Shown here in pieces: positions 2,126 to 64,000 of a stretch of DNA of 64,000 nucleotides (the first letter of the stretch is position 1; each line of letters begins with the position of its first letter). The stretch spans positions 17,050,001-17,114,000 of the forward strand of contig NC_086097.1 of assembly GCF_963921235.1 (NCBI RefSeq), in the 5' to 3' direction. The notes beneath the pieces were generated by a model. That model did not search any database, was not told the DNA's origin, and saw nothing but the letters and a program-made list of their open reading frames with translations. The DNA comes from Mobula hypostoma. Taxonomy: Eukaryota. The position numbers and the translations under genes were made by a program.

Positions 2126-3247
2126 ATATAAAAGAAAATACCAAAAGCTTTTTCAGGTATATAAAGAGTAAAAGACATGCAAAAGTGGATATTGGACTGC
2201 TGGAAAATGACACTGGAGAGATAGTAATGAGGAACAAAGAAATAGTGGATGAACTTAATAAATATTTTGCATCTGCCTTTACTGTGGCAGACACCAGCAG
2301 TAGGCCAGAATTTCAAGTGTCAGGGGACAGAAGTGAGTGTAGTTCCTATTACTAATGAGAAGGTGCTTGGGAAGCTGAAAGATCTGAAGGTAGATAAGTC
2401 ACCTGGACCAGATGGACTAGACCCTAGGGTTCAAAAAGAGATAGTTGAAGAGATTGTGGAGGCATTAGTAATGATCTTTCAAAATTGACTAAATTCTGGA
2501 ATTATTCCAGATGATTGGAAAATTGCAAATGTTGCTCTACTCTTTAAGAAGGGAGAGAGGCAGAAGAAAGGAAGTTATTGTCCAGTTAGTCTGATTTCAG
2601 TGGTTGGGAAGATGTTGGAGTCCATTATTAAGGATGAGGTTTCAGGGTACTTGGAGGTACATGATAAAATAGGCCAATGGTTTCCTTAAGGGAAGATCTT
2701 GTCTGACAGATTGGTTGGAGGAAATAATAAGCAGGATAGACGAAGGAGAATCGATAGATGTTGTTTACTTGGATTTTCAGAAGGGCTTTGACAAGGTGCA
2801 GCCCATAAGGCTGCCTAGCAAGATAAGAACCCATGGTATTACAGGAAAGTTACAAGCATGATAGAGAGGCTGGTTGACTAGCAGAAGGCAAAGAATGGAA
2901 AAAAGGGAGCCTTTCTGGTGGGCCGCTGGTGACTAGTGGTGTTCCGCAAAAGTTAGTCAGTTTTGAGACTGCTTCTTTTTATGTTATATGTTAGTGATTT
3001 GGATGATTTCTTCAGCCAGAGGAAGCTGAATCTGTGGAATTTATTGCCACAAATAGCTGTGCAGGCCAAGTCATTGAGTGGAGGTTGACAGGTTCTTGAT
3101 TAGTCAGAGTGTCAAAAGTTATGGGGAGATGGTAAGAGAATGGGATTGAGAGGGATAATAAGTCAGCCATAGGGGAATGGTGGAGCAGATTCAATGAGCT
3201 GAATGATCTAATTTTGCTCTTATGTCTTATGATCTTATAGTCTTATG
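2126..3247 (+). mobile_element. CR1 LINE fragment (ORF2 RT region, internal deletion, 3' end)
   Basis: KENTKSFFRYIKSKR, LKVDKSPGPDGLDPRV, YLDFQKGFDKV motifs; (TCTTATG)-like 3' tail at ~3217-3247. Confidence 0.9.
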
Positions 3248-38227: not shown

Positions 38228-40279
38228 ACTGAAGGAAGAGTGAGTAAGGGATTTGAAAGTTGGAGGGGGAGGGGGAGATCCAAAATGATAGGAGAAGACA
38301 GGAGGGGGAGGGATAGAGCCAAGAGCTGGACAGGTGATAGGCAAAAGAGGATACGAGAGGATCATGGGACAGGAGGTCCGGGAAGAAAGACAAGCGGGGG
38401 GGACCCCAAAGGATGGGCAAGAGGTATATTCAGAGGGACAGAGGGAGAAAAAGGAGAGTGAGAGAAAGAATGTGTGCATAAAAATAAGTAACAGATGGGG
38501 TACGAGGGGGAGGTGGGGCCTTAGCGGAAGAGAAGTCAATGTTCATGTCATCAGGTTGGAGGCTACCCAGACGGAATATAAGGTGTTGTTCCTCCAACCT
38601 GAGTGTGGCTTCATCTTTACAGTAGAGGAGGCCGTGGATAGACATGTCAGAATGGGAATGGGATGTGGAATTAAAATGTGTGGCCACTGGGAGATCCTGC
38701 TTTCTCTGGCGGACAGAGCGTAGATGTTCAGCAAAGTGGTCTCCCAGTCTGCGTCGGGTCTCGCCAATATATAAAAGGCCACATCGGGAGCCCCAGACGC
38801 AGTATATCACCCCAGTCGACTCACAGGTGAAGTGTTGCCTCACCTGGAAGGACTGTTTGTGGCCCTGAATGGTGGTAAGGGAGGAAGTGTAAGGGCATGT
38901 GTAGTACTTGTTCTGCTTACACGGATAAGTGCCAGGAGGGAGATCAGTGGGGTGGGATGGGGGGAACGAATGGACAAGGGAGTCGCGTAGGGAGCGATCC
39001 CTGCGGAATGCAGGGTGGGGGAGGGAAAGATGTGCTTAGTGGTGGGATCCCGTTGGAGGTGGCGGAAGTTATGGAGAATAATATGTTGGACCCGGAGGCT
39101 GGTGGGGTGGTAGGTGAGGACCAGGGGAACCCTATTCCGAGTGGGGTGGCGGGAGGATGGAGTGAGAGCAGATGTACGTGAAATGGGGGAGATGCGTTTA
39201 AGAGCAGAGTAGATAGTGGAGGAAGGGAAGCCCCTTTCTTTAAAAAAGGAAGACATCTCCCTCGTCCTAGAATGAAAAGCCTCATCCTGAGAGCAGATGC
39301 GGTGGAGACAGAGGAATTGCGAGAAGGGGATGGCGTTTTTGCAAGAGACAGGGTGAGAAGAGGAATAGTCCAGTTAGCTGTGAGAGTCAGTAGGCTTATA
39401 GTAGACATCAGTGGATAAGCTGTCTCCAGAGACAGAGACAGAAAGATCTAGAAAGGGGAGGGAGGTGTCGGAAATGGACCAGGTAAACTTGAGGGCAGGG
39501 TGAAAGTTGGAGGCAAAGTTAATAAAGTCAACGAGTTCTGCATGCGTGCAGGAAGCAGCGCCAATGCAGTCGTCGATGTAGCGAAGGAAAAGTGGGGGAC
39601 AGATACCAGAATAGGCACGGAACATAGATTGTTCCACAAACCCAACAAAACGGCAGGCATAGCTAGGACCCATACGGGTGCCCATAGCTACACCTTTAGT
39701 TTGGAGGAAGTGGGAGGAGACAAAGGAGAAATTATTAAGAGTAAGGACTAATTCCGCTAGACGGAGCAGAGTGGTGGTAGAGGGGAACTGATTAGGTCAA
39801 ACTGATTAGTCCTTACTCTTAATAACTTCTCTCAGGATGAGGCTTTTCATTCTAGGACGAGGGAGATGTCTTCCTTTTTTAAAGAAAGGGGCTTCCCTTC
39901 CTCCACTATCAACTCTGCTCTTAAATGCATCTCCCCCATTTCACGTACATCTGCTCTCACTCCATCCTCCCGCCACCCCACTCGGAATAGGGTTCCCCTG
40001 GTCCTCACCTACCACCCCACCAGCCTCTGGGTCCAACATATTATTCTCCGTAACTTCCGCCACCTCCAACGGGATCCCACCACTAAGCATATCTTTCCCT
40101 CCCCCCCCCCCGCATTCCGCAGGGATCGCTCCCTATGCAACTCCCTTGTCCATTCGTCCCCCCCATCCCTCCCCACTGATCTCCCTCCTGGCACTTATCC
40201 GTGTAAGCAGAACAAGTGCTACACATGCCCTTACACTTCCTCCCTTACCACCATTCAGGGCCCCAAATAGTCCTTCCAG

Positions 40280-40606
40280 GTGAGGCAACACTTCACCTGT
40301 GAGTCGACTGGAGTGATATACTGCGTCCGGTGCTCCCGATGTGGCCTTTTATATATTGGCGAGACCCGACGCAGACTGGGAGACCGCTTTGCTGAACATC
40401 TACGCTCTGTCCGCCAGAGAAAGCAGGATCTCCCAGTGGCCACACATTTTAATTCCACATCCCATTCCCATTCTGACATGTGTATCCACAGCCTCCTCTA
40501 CTGTAAAGATGAAGCCACACTCAGGTTGGAGGAACAACACCTTATATTCCGTCTGGGTAGCCTCCAACCTGATGGCATGAACATCGACTTCTCTAACTTC
40601 CGCTAA
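40280..40606 (+). pseudogene. Penelope GIY-YIG endonuclease domain (upstream in-frame TAG at 40268)
   Basis: FTCESTGVIYCVRCSRCGLLYIGETRRRLGDRFAEH...VATHFN...EQHLIFRLGSLQPDGMN; preceded by C-x4-C-x2-C (PCKQNKCYTC). Confidence 0.9.
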
Positions 40607-46778: not shown

Positions 46779-47716
46779 CATGTGTGTGAGGCTGGTTTTC
46801 TGTGCTCAGTGTTAGATGTGGGAGGACCTGGAGTCTCCCAGCCTCCCGGACGGCCATATCTGCATCCGATGTGTTGAGCTGCAGTTCCTTAGGGACTGCA
46901 TTAGGGAACTGGAGATGCAGCTTGATGACCTTTGTCAGGCCAGGGAGAGCGAGGAGGTGATAGAAAGAAGTTATAGGCAGGTGGTCACACCGAGGCCATG
47001 GGAGACAGACAAGTGGGTCACAGTCAGGAGGGGGAAGGGGAAGAATCAGAGTCAGGTACTAGAGAATACCCCTGTGGCTGTACCGCTTGACAATAAGTAC
47101 TCCTGTTTGAGTACTGTTGGGGGGGAACTGTTGGGGGAAGCAACAGTGGTTGTGCTTCTGGCATAGAGTCTGGCCCTGTGGCTCAGAGGGGTAGGGAAAG
47201 GAAGTGGAAGGCAGTAGTGATAGGGGACTCTATAGTTAGGGGGTCAGACAGGCGATTCTGTGGATGCAGGAAAGTAACTTGGATGGCAGTTTGCCTCCCA
47301 GGTGCCAGGGTCCGGAATGTTTCAGATCACGTTCAAGATATCCTGCAATGGGAGGAAGAACAGCCAGAGGTCGTGGTACATATTGGTACCAATGGCATAG
47401 GTAGGAAAAGGGAAGAAGTCCTGAAAACAGACTACAGGAAGTTAGGAAGGAAGTGAGAAGCAGGACCGCAAAGGTAGTAATCTCAGGATTACTGCCTGTG
47501 CCATGCGACAGTGAGAGTAGGAATGGAATGAGGTGGAGGATAAATGCGTGGCTGAGGGATTGGAGCAGGGGACAGGGATTCAGATTTCTGGATCATTGGG
47601 ACCTCTTTTGGGGCAGGTGTGACCTGTACAAAAAGGACGGGTTGCACTTGAATCCCAAGGGGACCAATATCCTGGTGGGGAGGTTTGCTAAGGCTACTGG
47701 GGAGAGTTTAAATTAG
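46779..47716 (+). pseudogene. CR1 ORF1 (zinc-finger/coiled coil plus SGNH esterase), frameshifted
   Basis: Three consecutive ORF pieces: 46816-47166, 47178-47456, 47453-47716. Confidence 0.85.
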
Positions 47717-49577
47717 AATTGTTGCGGGGGGGGGGTGTCTGGGAACTGAACTGAAGAAACTGGGGAAGAGGCGGTTGACTCACAAATAGAGAAAGCTTGT
47801 AGACAGTGCGAGAGGGAGGATAGGCAGGTGATAGAGAAGGGACGTGCTCAGACTGATGGTTTGAGGTGTCTATTTTAACGCAAGGAGTATTGTGAACAAA
47901 GTGGATGAGCTTTGAGTGTGGATCAGTACTTGGAGCTATGATGTGGTGGCCATTACAGAGACTTGGATGGCTCAGGGACAAGAATGATAACTTCAAGTGC
48001 CTTGTTTTAGATGTTTTAGAAAGGACAGGGAGGGAGGCAAAAGAGGTGGGGGCGTGGCACTGTTCAGAGATAGTGTCACGGCTGCAGAAAAGGTAGATGT
48101 CATGGAGGGATTGTCTACGGAGTCTCTGTGGGTGGAGGTTAGGAACAGGAAGGGGTCAATAATTTTACTGGGGATATCGAGGTGCAGATAGGGAAACAGA
48201 TCCTGGAAAGGTGTAATAATAGCAGAGCTGTCGTGATGGGAGATTTTAATTTCCCAAATATTGATTGGTATCTCCCTAGAGCAAGGGGTTTAGATGGGAT
48301 GGAGTTTTTTAGGTGTGTTCAGGAAGGTTTCTGACACAATATGTAGATAAGCCTACAAGAGGAGAGACTGTACTTGATTTGGTATTGGGAAATGAACCTG
48401 GTCAAGTGTCAGATCTTTCAGTGGGAGAGCATTTTGGAGATAGTGATCATAATTCTATCTCCTTTACAATAGCATTGGAGAGAGATAGGAACAGACAAGT
48501 TAGAAAAGTGTTTAATTGGAGTAAGGGGAATTATGAGGCTATCAGGAAGGAAATTCGAAGCTTAAATTGGGAACAGATGTTCTCAGGGAAAAGTACGGAA
48601 GAAATGTGGCAAATGTTCAGGGGATATTTGTGTGGAGTTCTGCATAAGTATGTTCCAGTGAGACAGGAAAGTTATAGTAGGGTACAGGAACCATGGTGTA
48701 CAAAGGTTGTAATAAATCTAGTCAAGAAGAAAAGAAAAGCTTACAAAAGGTTCAGAGATCTAGGTGATGTTAGAGATGTAGAAGGTTATAAGGCTAACAG
48801 GAAGGAGCTTAAAAAGGAAATTAGCAGAGCCAGAAGGGGCCATGAGAAGGCCTTGGCGGGTAGGATTAAGGAAAACCCCAAGGCATTCTACAAGTATGTG
48901 AAGAGCAAGAGGATAAGATGTGAAATAATAGGACCTATCAAGTGTGACAGTGGTAAAGTATATATGGAACTGGAGGAAATAGCAGAGGTACTTAATGAAT
49001 ACTTTACCTCAGTACTCACTATAGAAAAGGATCTTGGTGATTGTAATGCTGACTTGCAGCAGACTGAAAAGCTTGAGCATGTAGATATTAAGAAAGAGGA
49101 TGTGCTGGAGCTTTTGGAAAGCATCAAGTTGGATAAGTTGCCGGGACCAGATGAGGTGTACCCCAGGCTATTCTGGGAGGTGAGGGAAGAGATTGCTGAG
49201 CCTCTGGTGATGATATTTGCATTATCAAATGGGATGGGAGAGGTTCTGGAGGATTGGAGGGTTGTGGATGTTGTTCCTTTATTCAAGAAAGGGAGTAGAG
49301 TAGAGATAGCCCAGGAAATTATAGACCAGTAAGTCTTACTTCAGTTGTTGGTAAGTTGATGGAGAAGATCCTGAGAGGCAGGATTTATGAACATTTGGAG
49401 AGGTATAATATGATTAGGAATAGTCAGCATGGCTTTCTCAAGGGCAGCAGGTTGTGCCTTACGAGCCTGATTGAATTTTTTGAGGATGTGACTAAACACA
49501 TTGATGAAGGAAGAGCAGTAGATGTAGTGTATATGGATTTCAGCAAGGCATATGATAAGGTACCCCATGCAAGGCTT

Positions 49578-51706
49578 TTTTTTTGTAATTTATTTTTTAT
49601 TGAAGTTCATCATCAAACAAAACTTTCCATAAGATGTATTTCAGATACTGTACATATATATCATATAGTCATATTTGTCACAAATCTCCATATAATACTT
49701 ATCTGAGGTATATACTTATAGAAAGAAGAGGAAAGAAAGAACAATTGAAAGAAGAAAACTATGTAGAAATAGGGAGTGATCTTTTTTTTAACAACATATT
49801 CATTGACTTGTGAGAATAAAATCAGGCTTATGAGGTGTTATGTAGTTAAACCATTTTTCCCAGTATGAATCAAATTGTTCCAACTGATAATTAACAGATG
49901 CTGTTATCTTCTCCATTTAGTAAATGTCCATTGTAACTTCCATCCATACATTTAAAGTTGGGCTCTCCTGTGATAACCATTTCCTGGTAAGAGTCTATTT
50001 ACCAGCCACCAGCAGTATATTCATTAAATATTTATCTCTTTTCAACCATTCTTGAGGTATATACCCAAAATATATGGTCTTACTCTCCAAGGATATTTCA
50101 GATTTAAATATGTCTGGTAGGGTATTATGTATCCCAGTCCAATAGTCTTTGATAACAGGGCATTCCCAGTAATATGATAATGGTTTGATTCCCAGTAATA
50201 TGATAATGGTTTGCATTTTGATTTCCACAATTTCTCCAGCAAACAGGGAGGTTACTATCATAATGGGATTTCTGAGAGGGTGTAATGAAATATCTTATCA
50301 AGTTTTTCCACCTGAACTCCCTCCATTTCTGTGAACTGGTACACTTCCATTGATACCTCCATATTATTGTCCATTCTTCCTCAGATATTATTATCCCTCC
50401 TTCCTTCTCCCATTTTGTTTTAATGTATGAAGTCCAATGTGTTTTAAGATTCGACAAACCTTTCTACACACTTGAAATTATTCTGCTGCCGTTGTCTGAA
50501 TTATATGCTTTTCTAAATAGCTCTATCAAACATGTGGATTTTTAACCTTCCTATTAACATACTGTCGCATCTGTAAATATCGATAAAAGTCTTGTTTTTC
50601 TAGTAAGTGTTTCTCTTTGAGCATTTCAAAACTAAACAGTGTTCATTCTTTCATGATATTGCAAATAGCTGTTACTCCTTTAACTGTCCAGTCCTTAAAT
50701 CTAGCATCCAGTTTGTTCGGCGTAAAATCCAAGTCATATGCACACCATTTAAGAATTGCAATGTCTCTCTCTAGTTTATATTCTTTTATAATAGTTTTCC
50801 ATATTTTAAGAGTCCATTTCACCCACGGGTTATCAATAGTATTTATGTAACTTTGTAGGTTGTTATCAGCTAAAATTGCCTGTATGGGGATGGAAAGTAT
50901 CCTGTCCTCAATGTTTTTCCATTGAGCGTCACATGAGGGGTTGCACCAACATATCACAGCTCTCAACTGTGCTGCAAAATAGTAATCTCTAAGAGAAGGT
51001 AGGCCCCATCCTCCCTTTTCCTTGGTTAATTGCAAAGTTTTGAGACGAACCCTAGGCCTTTTACCTTGCCATATATATCTTGATAGCATCTTGTTCCATT
51101 CATTGAATTGGTTTTGGTTAATCTCTATTGGTAGGGTCTGAAAGATATATAATAGTCTGGGCAGTATATTCATTTTAATAGATTCAATCCTTGAACTGAG
51201 ACCAAGAAAAGGAATTAGGTTCCATCTTGTTAAACCATCCTTAATTTTTCTATATATAGGCTGATAATTGCATTCTGATAATTTTGTCAAATCTTTTGGC
51301 ATAATGATGCCCAAATATTTGACGGACTCCGTTTGCCACGCCCAAGGATATCTACTTTCAATTCCTCTTGGTGGGCTAGAGTTATATGAAAGTAGTTATG
51401 TTTTATCTATGTTGATCTTGTACTCTGATAATTGGCCATATTGTTCAAAGGATTGCATCAATTTAGGTAAGGAGTATCTTGGTTGCCCTAGATAGATCAA
51501 AATGTCATCTGCGTAACAGGCCAATTTATGTTCTGTGTACTTTAATAGTAATTCCCCTGATATCTTCATTTTTTCTGATGTATTGAGCTAATGGTTCCAA
51601 ATATAATGCGAAGAGTAGCGGTGACCATGCACAACCCTGTCACGTACCCCTTTCTAGGGTAAAACTATTAGATAAATATCCATGATTTTAATCTTTGCAG
51701 TCGGAT
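49578..51706 (-). mobile_element. 5'-truncated L1-clade LINE inserted antisense into the CR1 RT, 17-bp TSD
   Basis: Poly(T) at the left end. Minus: [76 protein letters not shown](A/C)GGCTT at 49561-77 and 51707-23. Confidence 0.92.
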
Positions 51707-53344
51707 TACCCCATGCACGGCTTATTGAGAAAGTAAGGAGGCATGGGATCCAAGGGAACATTGCTTTGTGGATCCAGAACTGGCTTGCCCACAGAAGGCA
51801 AAGAGTGGGTCCAGAAGGGTCATTCTGCATGGAGTAGTATGCCTCACGGATCTGTTCTGGGACACCTACTCTTTGTGATTTTTATAAGTGACTTGAATGA
51901 GGAAGTGGAGGGATGGGTTAGTAAGTTTGCTGATGACACAAAGGTTGGAGGTGTTGTGGTTAGTGTGGAGGGCTGTCAGAGGTTACAGCGGGACATTGAT
52001 AGGATGCAAAACTGGGCTGATAAGTGGCAGATGGAGTTCAACCCAGGTAAGTGTGAAGTGGTTCATTTTGGTAGTTCAAATATGATGGCAGAATATAGTA
52101 TTAATGGTAAGACTCTTGGCAGTGTGGAGAATCAGAGGGATCTTGGGGTCCGAGTCCATAGGACACTCAAAGCAGCTGTGCAGGTTGACTCTGTGGTTAA
52201 GAAGGCATATGGTGTACTAGCCTTCTTCAACTGTGGGATTGAGTTCAAGAGCCAAGAGATAATATTACAGCTATATAGGACCCAGGTCAGATCCCATTTG
52301 GAGTACTATGCTCAGTTCTGGTCACCTCACTACAGGAAGGACGTGGAAACCATAGAAAAGGTGCAGAGAAGATTTACAAGGATGTTGCCTGGAATGGGGA
52401 GCATGCCTTATGAAAACAGGTTGAGTGAACTCGGCCTTTTCTCCTTGCAACGACAGAGGATGAGAGGTGACCTGATAGAGGTGTATAAGATGATGAGAGG
52501 CATTGATCGTGTGGATAGTCAGAGGCTTTTTCACAGGGCTGAAATGGTTGCCACAAGAGGACACAGGTTTAAGGCGCTGGGGAGCAGGTACAGAGGAAAT
52601 GTCAGGGGTAAGTTTTTTTACTCAGAGAGTGGTGAGTGCGTGGAATGGGCTGCCAGCAATGGTGGTGGAGGTGGATATGATAGGGTCTTTTAAGAGACTT
52701 TTGGATAGGTACATGGAGCTTAGAAAACTAGAGGGCTATGGGTAAGCGTAGTAATTTCTAAGGTAGGGACATGTTCGGCACGACTTTGTGGGCTGAAGGG
52801 CCTGTATTGTGCTGTGGGTTTTCTATGTTTCTATGTTTCTATGCTTTATGTTATAATTCCCTGAGAGGAAATGATGCCCAGAGTAAAAGATGTTCTGTAA
52901 GGAGATATTAACTAGAACATATATTTTGTATTTTACAGAATGAAAGATGACCACTTTAAAATGTATAAAACTTTTCAAGAATTTAACTTCAAAGCTCAGG
53001 GTTTAAAGTACATTTATTATCAAAGTATGTATACAACCTTGAGTTTTGTCTCCTTACAGGCAGCCACAAAACAAGAAACCCAAAAGAACACAGTAAAAAA
53101 AAAGACCATCAAGCACCCAATGACCCAATGCGCAGGAAGAGAAAAATAACAGTGCAAACAATAAATGTAAACAAATACCACTCACTTGGTAGATGTCGAG
53201 AGACGATTTCTTCAAGCTGCAGAGTTCAGAGCGAGGAGTCAGGACACTTAGGAGACGAGATGAAATTTCTTCCTTCAGAAAGCTGCGATCCTTTGGTGTT
53301 TTCCTCAAAGAATAATGGATGATCTCCCATTGACTGAGAATGAC

Positions 53345-63172: not shown

Positions 63173-63385
63173 AGTTCTTTGCCAGATCTGTGACAAATCT
63201 TCTTTGTCATTATCTTCTTCGTCTTTCAATCAGATCTTGAATATTTTTCTAAGGTAGACCCATTGAGCACTATAGTACAGAAACAGTCCCTTTGGCCCAT
63301 CTAGTCTGTGCCAAGTTCTCCTGCCTTGTCCTGTCTACACCCATCCAGACCATAGCCTTCTATAACCCTCTCATCCAAGTACATA

Positions 63386-64000
63386 CAGTTGAAGTCAGAA
63401 GTTTACATACACCTTAGCCAAAATACACTTAAACTTAGTTTTTCACAATTCCTGACATTTAGTCCTAGAAAACATTCCCCATCTTAGGTCAGTTAGGATC
63501 ACTACTTTATTTTAAGAATGTGAAATGTCAGAATAATAGTAGAGAGAATGATTTATTTCAGCTTTTATTTCTTTCATCACTTTCCCAGTCAGTCAGAAGT
63601 TTACATACACTTTGTTAGTATTTGGTAGCATTGCCTTTAAATTGTTTGACTTGGGTCAAACGTTTTGGGTAGCCTTCCACAAGCTTCTCACAATAAGTTG
63701 CTGGAATTTTGTTCCATTCCTCCAGACAGAACTGATGTAACTGAGTCAGGTTTGTAGGCACATGCTTTTCCTTGCTCGCACATGCTTTTTCAGTTCTGCC
63801 CACAAATTTTTTTTATCGGATTGAGGCCAGAAGATGATGTCAAGTCTGGTTATCTTTGGGAGCAATTTCTAAATGCCTGAAGGTACCACGTTCATCTGTA
63901 CAAACAATAGTACGCAAGTATAAACACCATGGGACCAAGCAGCTGTCCGCTCAGGAAGGAGACGTATTCTCCTAGAGATGAATGTACTTTGGCGTGAAAA
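63386..64000. mobile_element. Sleeping Beauty-like IR/DR Tc1 transposon, rearranged, runs off window
   Basis: TA-CAGTTGAAGTCAGAAGTTTACATACACCTTAG, with inner DR TCAGAAGTTTACATACAC ending at 63610. Minus C-terminus ...KLVEGYPKRLTQVKQFKGNATKY*. Plus N-terminal LGAISKCLKVPRSSVQTIVRKYKHHGT. Confidence 0.93.

Follow-up and report, generated by a model that had tools for sequence, protein, structure and literature searches.

How does a transposon of the Sleeping Beauty (SB) type come to sit in the genome of a ray? The question is raised by the last 615 nucleotides (63386-64000) of a 64,000-nucleotide stretch of Mobula hypostoma DNA, C1:17050001-17114000, which we call the window and which was analysed over its whole length. 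These nucleotides are the left third of a 1,783-bp Tc1/mariner element of the DD34E kind with ends that are inverted repeats holding direct repeats (IR/DR), and a first-pass annotation had proposed them as a candidate for horizontal transfer. We find that the window copy is a dead, non-autonomous element of the SB clade. Very probably, its family reached the rays horizontally, with an SB lineage of bony fishes near the salmonid type as source or intermediary, multiplied and then decayed, with a right-end-duplicated subfamily that was moved in trans.

Membership in the SB type can be read from the window copy's own frames, which match the Pfam families HTH_SB (47.6 bits in the window frame, with a cut-off of 43), HTH_Tnp_Tc3_2 and DDE_3, the last two within L001:2113-2850. 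The plus-strand frame at 63838-63975, which from 63838 reads SLGAISKCLKVPRSSVQTIVRKYKHHGT and contains LKVPRSSVQTIVRKYKHHGT, is identical to the PAI subdomain of SB (2m8e) at 28 of 30 residues (E 1.6e-12). On the other strand, the frame directly past the inner direct repeat reads ...PTNLTQLHQFCLEEWNKIPATYCEKLVEGYPKRLTQVKQFKGNATKY, ends in GNATKY and shares 40 of the last 48 residues of SB100X (PDB 5cr4; E 5e-22, identities counted from the alignment), close to the roughly 41 of 47 that the first-pass annotation had given. The open frame of a further copy, L004, matches the SB100X catalytic domain in PDB with an E value of 1.6e-133, in addition to the SB RED and PAI subdomains, and scores 52.4 bits for HTH_SB (cut-off 43), 71.5 for HTH_Tnp_Tc3_2 (31.5) and 68.9 for DDE_3 (28.6). 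The 34 residues expected between the second D and the E of the catalytic triad are present in the L002/L015 frame (MDNDPKH...NPIENLW). Departures from the catalytic pattern are decay of single copies: L004 has a Q in place of the catalytic E, and the window copy has lost 2 residues between D and E. The family thus combines a TA duplication, long terminal inverted repeats (TIRs) with outer and inner direct repeats, and a transposase with PAI, RED and DDE_3 regions, as Tc1/mariner DD34E elements of the IR/DR group do. It also falls in the SB clade as delimited by Jia et al. 2022 (PMC9777934), with which it shares TA integration and long TIRs: it groups with the SB type in a tree of database proteins, and its coding sequence is 97.2% identical to that type, where the clade is bounded at >80%.

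The SB-type reference for these comparisons came from a scan of metagenome contigs that used the best database match, protein P0001, as query and returned three loci. L056:313-1951 holds a 1,639-bp, TA-flanked SB-type element with an uninterrupted 340-codon gene; its triad residues D244 and E279 (re-indexed by hand) have the 34-residue spacing. The product differs from the SB100X catalytic domain only at four short stretches, which we take to be the engineered hyperactive positions. Over 1.2-1.65 kb, non-coding ends included, individual ray copies share 91.6-94.3% of their DNA sequence with L056 and L057, and the one canonical ray copy, L044, matches the 1,639-bp element at 91.6% over 1,647 aligned bases. 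Like SB itself (SB10/SB100X) and the natural salmonid-type Tc1-like elements from which SB was reconstructed, the ray family duplicates TA and has IR/DR ends of about 230 bp with two direct repeats each, and like SB it encodes a 340-residue PAI-RED-DDE transposase with DD34E spacing. Unlike SB, it carries substitutions of its own, for example HQFCLEEWNKIPATYCEKL where SB has HQLCQEEWAKIHPNYCGKL, and forms a separate clade; it resides in a cartilaginous fish; and in most of its well-preserved copies both ends are of the right type and the gene begins only after ~19 missing codons.

This last feature explains the odd order of parts at the end of the window. The element runs on for 1,168 bp past the window end (full span L001:1501-3283, in a searched genome of 3.48 Gb and 200 contigs). 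There, on the plus strand, the transposase continues through its RED and DDE domains to the stop codon, and a right IR/DR follows that ends in ...GACTTCAACTG before a TA, so that the copy has TA on both sides. Its left end, which after the TA reads CAGTTGAAGTC (as a longer stretch, CAGTTGAAGTCAGAAGTTTACATACAC), had been taken for the right IR/DR of SB. The right-type sequence stands, the reading as a plain right end does not: the piece forms the left arm of a long-TIR derivative that has undergone rearrangement. Element positions 1-445, when reversed, match the right end of L056 and L057 at 90.3-90.6% and their left IR/DR at only 67-68%, and the arm is 93-94.5% identical to the right arm of the same copy. 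Positions 456-1029 correspond to L056 757-1339 with 92.5% identity. The arm stands in place of the true left IR/DR, the 5' untranslated region (5'UTR) and the beginning of the gene, start codon included, over roughly 19 codons. A right-type IR/DR is followed by a C-terminal transposase piece on one strand and an N-terminal piece on the other because the left end has been replaced by the inverted right 445 bp. The same junction occurs in 39 other genomic places, which align over nearly all 615 bases at 91-92%; the rearrangement therefore arose once and then multiplied. Two nested or adjacent elements were considered as the source of the opposed transposase pieces and rejected, since a single junction is common to the 39 other copies. 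Both pieces belong to one rearranged element, a point that goes beyond the first-pass annotation, as does the extension past the window.

The outer and inner direct repeats that had been described behind a TA were recovered by a repeat search. The two 23-nt repeats are 96% alike and 198 nt apart, and their 20-nt core occurs at two exact places in the 64-kb window, where 0.01 would be expected and none of 100 shuffles reached two. Between two functional ends, this copy has no uninterrupted ~340-codon gene that opens with a start codon, and it moreover carries frameshifts and a deletion of ~58 bp relative to its relatives.

The right IR/DR of the window copy also harbours an insertion of ~199 bp (L001:2980-3178, ~0.9-1.1 kb past the window end) that is absent from other copies. 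In sequencing runs of four organisms, summed contig depth peaks here by a wide margin (bin 3041-3200), so that the insertion has the look of a short host repeat of very high abundance; when a 36-nt piece was searched against the window with as many as 3 mismatches allowed, nothing matched.

That the host is a devil ray, and hence a cartilaginous fish as the first-pass annotation had supposed, is clear from its single-exon RAG2 gene (L059). The encoded protein is 98% identical to that of Mobula birostris, 84% to Narcine, 83% to Amblyraja, 74-81% to sharks, 68% to Callorhinchus and 57% to Latimeria, and it falls to 46-49% with teleosts (including Salmo salar, Esox, Megalops, Thunnus and Chanos), Salmo salar standing at 46%. 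A second line of evidence comes from an NCBI protein, 'endoribonuclease LACTB2 isoform X2 [Mobula hypostoma]', which is largely a copy of the family's transposase. Its residues 1-202 are 100% identical to one decayed copy (L041, G000:C1:220903497-220904102), the other 149 scored copies reaching at most 88%. Since the copies differ from one another by several percent, an exact match to one of them is highly specific. The gene model may be an annotation artefact or an exonised transposon.

With the host established, the element can be compared across species. A majority sequence was derived from 37 distinct ray loci (52 minus repeats of the same place, with the window copy left out), and its translation has no internal stop. 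Against L056, it is identical at 990/1018 positions of the coding region (97.2%), at 220/228 of the right non-coding IR/DR (96.5%) and, with a coverage of about eight copies, at 205/223 of the left IR/DR (91.9%), while the proteins agree at 324/341 residues. The majorities of the long-TIR copies and of the copies that bear an N terminus each lie 3.0% from L056. The ray majority protein is 94.4% identical to the SB-type proteins P0001/P0002, 88.8% to a Salmo trutta copy, 82.4% to Prochilodus and 80.9% to Coilia. Nucleotide identity is therefore high rather than low, and the close likeness of the non-coding repeat to SB that had been noted by eye is borne out.

Could such likeness have been inherited? 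Tc1/mariner elements are ancient and widespread, and the direct repeats and the transposase are under functional constraint, so that inheritance from an ancestor shared by cartilaginous and bony fishes, with conservation ever since, has to be considered. We regard it as exceedingly improbable. RAG2, a conserved host protein, has kept 46% identity between ray and salmon, whereas the transposon has 94% in protein and 96-97% in DNA, non-coding spacer included, even though its copies decay freely. With the full SB-type protein as query, stop codons interrupt 102 of the 119 matches that were scored, the best of 58,801 candidates. Copies stand 3-4% from the majority by the Kimura two-parameter (K2P) distance (averaged over 35 copies, 3.6%, falling to 3.0% when CpG sites are left out). 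Distribution speaks the same way: the text of the 2022 survey reports SB from 107 Actinopterygii and one mollusc and no SB-clade chondrichthyan, its sole entry from that class being a ZB-like element of Callorhinchus milii (PMC9777934), and a 2025 study gives Tc1/mariner (TcMar) shares of 2.30% for ray genomes and 3.28% for skates against 0.14% for sharks and 0.03% for the chimaera (PMC12361510). Vertical descent is thus untenable on these data, much as had been suspected, and the excess of element similarity over host-gene similarity, together with an element phylogeny in conflict with that of the hosts (below), makes horizontal transfer into the ray lineage well supported by sequence comparison.

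An assembly artefact would have to be weighed here too, since near-identity to a fish element that is also used as a laboratory tool, in a window that stops inside that element, might betray teleost DNA contaminating the ray assembly, or a mis-assembly. The genome speaks strongly to the contrary. A terminal 27-mer of the element has at least 2,009 matches across contigs when 2 mismatches are tolerated, where its reversed control has 0, and copies lie on many contigs, the largest included. Both termini were found in 27 of the 37 loci, and in 23 of these 27 the element is bounded by TA on each side, in flanks that are unrelated to one another. The copies carry ray-specific substitutions and form a clade of their own; the ~199-bp insertion nested in the window copy is the stretch of highest contig depth in all four runs; and one copy is part of an NCBI gene model of M. 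hypostoma. Contigs of the family were also found in the runs of the four organisms, which are close to the host and whose unique flank differs from that of the window genome by 0/852, 17/856, 17/341 and 53/763. Contamination or mis-assembly accordingly has next to no probability in our estimate, and we return to transfer into the ray lineage as the preferred explanation.

From where did the family come? In the protein tree, the ray copies form a clade (support 100/97) inside the teleost SB group (95/97), beside a salmonid-type clade (96/97) that includes L056, Salmo trutta and Oncorhynchus mykiss and leaves the ray out; Prochilodus, Coilia and P0004 make up the next group out (95/97). The donor was probably an SB lineage close to the salmonid type. 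The salmonid-type closeness claimed at the outset therefore holds, with 97.2% of the coding sequence shared with the SB-type L056, while a salmonid donor itself is unsupported by the tree, because the ray clade is sister to the salmonid-type clade and not nested within it. The same topology, with its weak joining node, leaves some room for a real transfer that ran from the ray to teleosts, or from a third party (a parasite, a virus or another fish) to both. In keeping with this, the ray founder and L056 are 3.0% apart, less than the 3.4-4.2% that separates ray copies from their own majority, so that the split of the master lineages is not much older than the ray burst. Such a course nevertheless appears improbable to us: SB-clade diversity lies in Actinopterygii, with 107 species of 33 orders in the survey text (PMC9777934), and the next outgroups in our tree are teleosts. 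Since the known diversity of the clade is actinopterygian, a bony-fish source would be the parsimonious direction.

Several points weigh against the transfer we favour, or against parts of it. The node that joins the ray and salmonid-type clades is weak (84/28). L056 is a metagenome contig, tied to salmonids through its grouping with proteins of Salmo trutta and Oncorhynchus mykiss. The 37 loci are the best-scoring matches of earlier searches, so the majority favours well-preserved copies, and only about eight of these copies cover its left IR/DR and one its 5'UTR. Coding differences between the ray majority and L056 amount to 9 synonymous and 19 non-synonymous codons, which shows no clear purifying selection, unlike the transferred elements reported in PMC7070016. 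For a patchy distribution among sharks, skates and rays, the case rests on the literature. Finally, no listed contig from the runs of the four organisms bridges either junction of the window insertion.

Once in the ray, the family became large: it numbers at least thousands of copies. Two protein queries gave 35,487 and 58,801 first-look candidates, figures that should not be read as copy numbers. The loci with both termini fall into three length groups. The first, of ~1,620-1,645 bp, is the long-TIR form seen in the window. The second, of ~1,465 bp, is likewise non-autonomous: it has lost the 5'UTR and ATG, and its inner left direct repeat runs directly into codon 3 (L045-L055, for example L047:1366-1520); it accounts for at least 8 of 12 loci from a search with the N terminus. 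The third is the single canonical copy L044, of 1,621 bp, which has both 5'UTR and ATG and is frameshifted. It is the only locus, 1 of 150 scored matches, to cover residues 1-40, and it is split into frames of 154 and 111 residues.

The prevalence of truncated forms is also apparent when the best 119 matches to the full SB-type protein are classed by the residue at which the alignment starts: none starts at residue 1-2, 5 start at 3-5, 17 at 6-17, 93 at 18-21 (the signature of the long-TIR form) and 4 at 24-29. None of the 17 matches that are free of stops begins before residue 8. The search for intact open reading frames of ~340 residues that had been recommended accordingly came back empty, with no intact transposase gene of ~340 codons seen among these best 119 of 58,801 candidates, though one may exist elsewhere. 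Among well-preserved copies, the long-TIR form is the commonest and is slightly younger than the others: K2P distances to the own majority are 3.4% in the long-TIR group and 4.2% in the N-terminus-bearing group, the two majorities lying 0.5% apart. At a rough estimate, copies that stand 3-4% from their majority would have the age of a species split with ~6-8% pairwise neutral difference. The most distant of the four organisms differs from the window genome at 53/763 positions, or 6.9%, in a single stretch of 0.8 kb, and the burst would then be about as old as the split from that organism.

How could copies without a start codon have spread? Cut-and-paste transposition is established for SB (PMC5224488), and the conserved direct repeats, protein domains and TA duplications suggest that the same mechanism would apply to the ray family. 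By homology with SB, the DDE transposase would bind the outer and inner direct repeats in each IR/DR of ~230 bp, pair the ends, excise the element and insert it at a TA, which would thereby be duplicated. The founder of the subfamily would have had its true left end and ~19 codons replaced once by the inverted right 445 bp, which would have left it with two right-type ends. Because the long-TIR and 5'UTR-deleted forms lack a start codon, both were presumably moved in trans, by transposase made from canonical copies. With two right-type ends, the long-TIR form therefore lacks HDR, the left-end enhancer motif of SB that is treated as helpful in laboratory work (PMC5224488). Its dominance may reflect better mobilisation or chance. 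SB TIRs of up to 415 bp, with a 3' TIR that overlaps the open reading frame, are reported in the 2022 survey (PMC9777934), for which reason long-TIR SB variants may also occur in teleosts.

The features of the window portion are collected in Table 1.

Table 1. Parts of the transposon at the right-hand edge of the window (window coordinates unless marked otherwise)
Feature	Position	Strand	Basis or remark
Left target-site duplication, TA	63384-63385		Read directly; matching TA at L001:3284-3285
Left arm, 445 bp	63386-63830	+	Copy of the same element's right end in inverted orientation, comprising right IR/DR and last ~64 transposase codons
Outer direct repeat, transposase-binding-site type	63393-63415	+	Repeat search; core-match count
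Inner direct repeat of the IR/DR	63591-63613	+	Repeat search; core-match count
Inverted, duplicated C-terminal transposase remnant	63615-63812	-	65-aa frame; ~SB residues 293-340
Junction (~10 nt) between inverted arm and element body	63831-63840		Alignment to L056 switches part and strand between element positions 1-445 and 456-1029
Element body, transposase remnant from ~codon 20 (PAI helix-turn-helix), without start codon	63841-64000	+	Continues beyond the window to G000:C1:17115168

Inside the inverted C-terminal remnant, at 63758-63789, the 12-nt string GCACATGCTTTT occurs twice, 20 nt apart, in what looks like a private 20-bp tandem duplication of the window copy. In the window, 63 frames of at least 110 residues look like retrotransposon remnants, and no host gene was recognised. 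Long frames that resemble remnants of reverse transcriptases or long interspersed nuclear elements crowd 47097-53000 and other parts (for example 48313-49332, 50643-51395 and 51737-52693). Two facing frames, at 38430-39796 on the minus strand and 39806-40606 on the plus strand, carry near-identical protein text including ...GLLYIGETRRRLGD.FAEHLRSV...; they resemble the GIY-YIG endonuclease part of Penelope-like retroelements, placed head-to-head. A search of the whole window against Rfam gave no match at gathering scores. A scan of viral contigs with the SB-type protein gave 9 pattern matches, none of them a relative.

We wondered how these findings relate to what has been published on Tc1/mariner transfer. 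Among vertebrates, 975 horizontal transfer events have been inferred for these elements, 93.7% of them with ray-finned fishes (Zhang et al. 2020, PMC7070016), and the ray case is of the same kind, in that distant vertebrates share a DNA transposon whose likeness far exceeds what their divergence would permit. In the main text of the 2020 study, the words Chondrichthyes, shark, cartilaginous and Callorhinchus do not occur; the ray adds a partner lineage. Our full-text literature search found no report of an SB-clade element, or of its transfer, in rays. In the 2025 study that documents the TcMar excess, the responsible clade is not named, and the word 'horizontal' is absent from the journal version and occurs in the preprint only for retinal cells (PMC12361510). 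Judging from the candidate counts, the size of the SB-type family could account for much of the TcMar excess in this ray. What is known, then, is the process of transfer; what is new is a cartilaginous-fish host class for a known SB clade.

A broader possibility is that one cross-class invasion by the SB clade lies behind the greater part of the Tc1/mariner expansion by which rays (skates perhaps too) differ from sharks, with the two-right-end, 445-bp-TIR derivative out-multiplying the canonical form. We put this forward tentatively, as something that may well prove wrong. If true, SB-type transposases would mobilise right/right long-TIR substrates very efficiently in vivo, and the ray lineage would supply ~17 amino-acid variants of the SB transposase that nature has already tested.

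Since Tc1/mariner transfer among aquatic vertebrates is well documented, the ray case is an addition and not a surprise. It offers a clean, datable case of transposon transfer between vertebrate classes and a concrete candidate cause for the published, unexplained Tc1/mariner excess of rays over sharks. The dominant two-right-end derivative amounts to a natural experiment on which ends SB-type transposases accept. Taken together, these findings add cartilaginous fishes to the bony fishes as natural hosts of the SB clade, from which a gene-transfer tool in wide use was derived.

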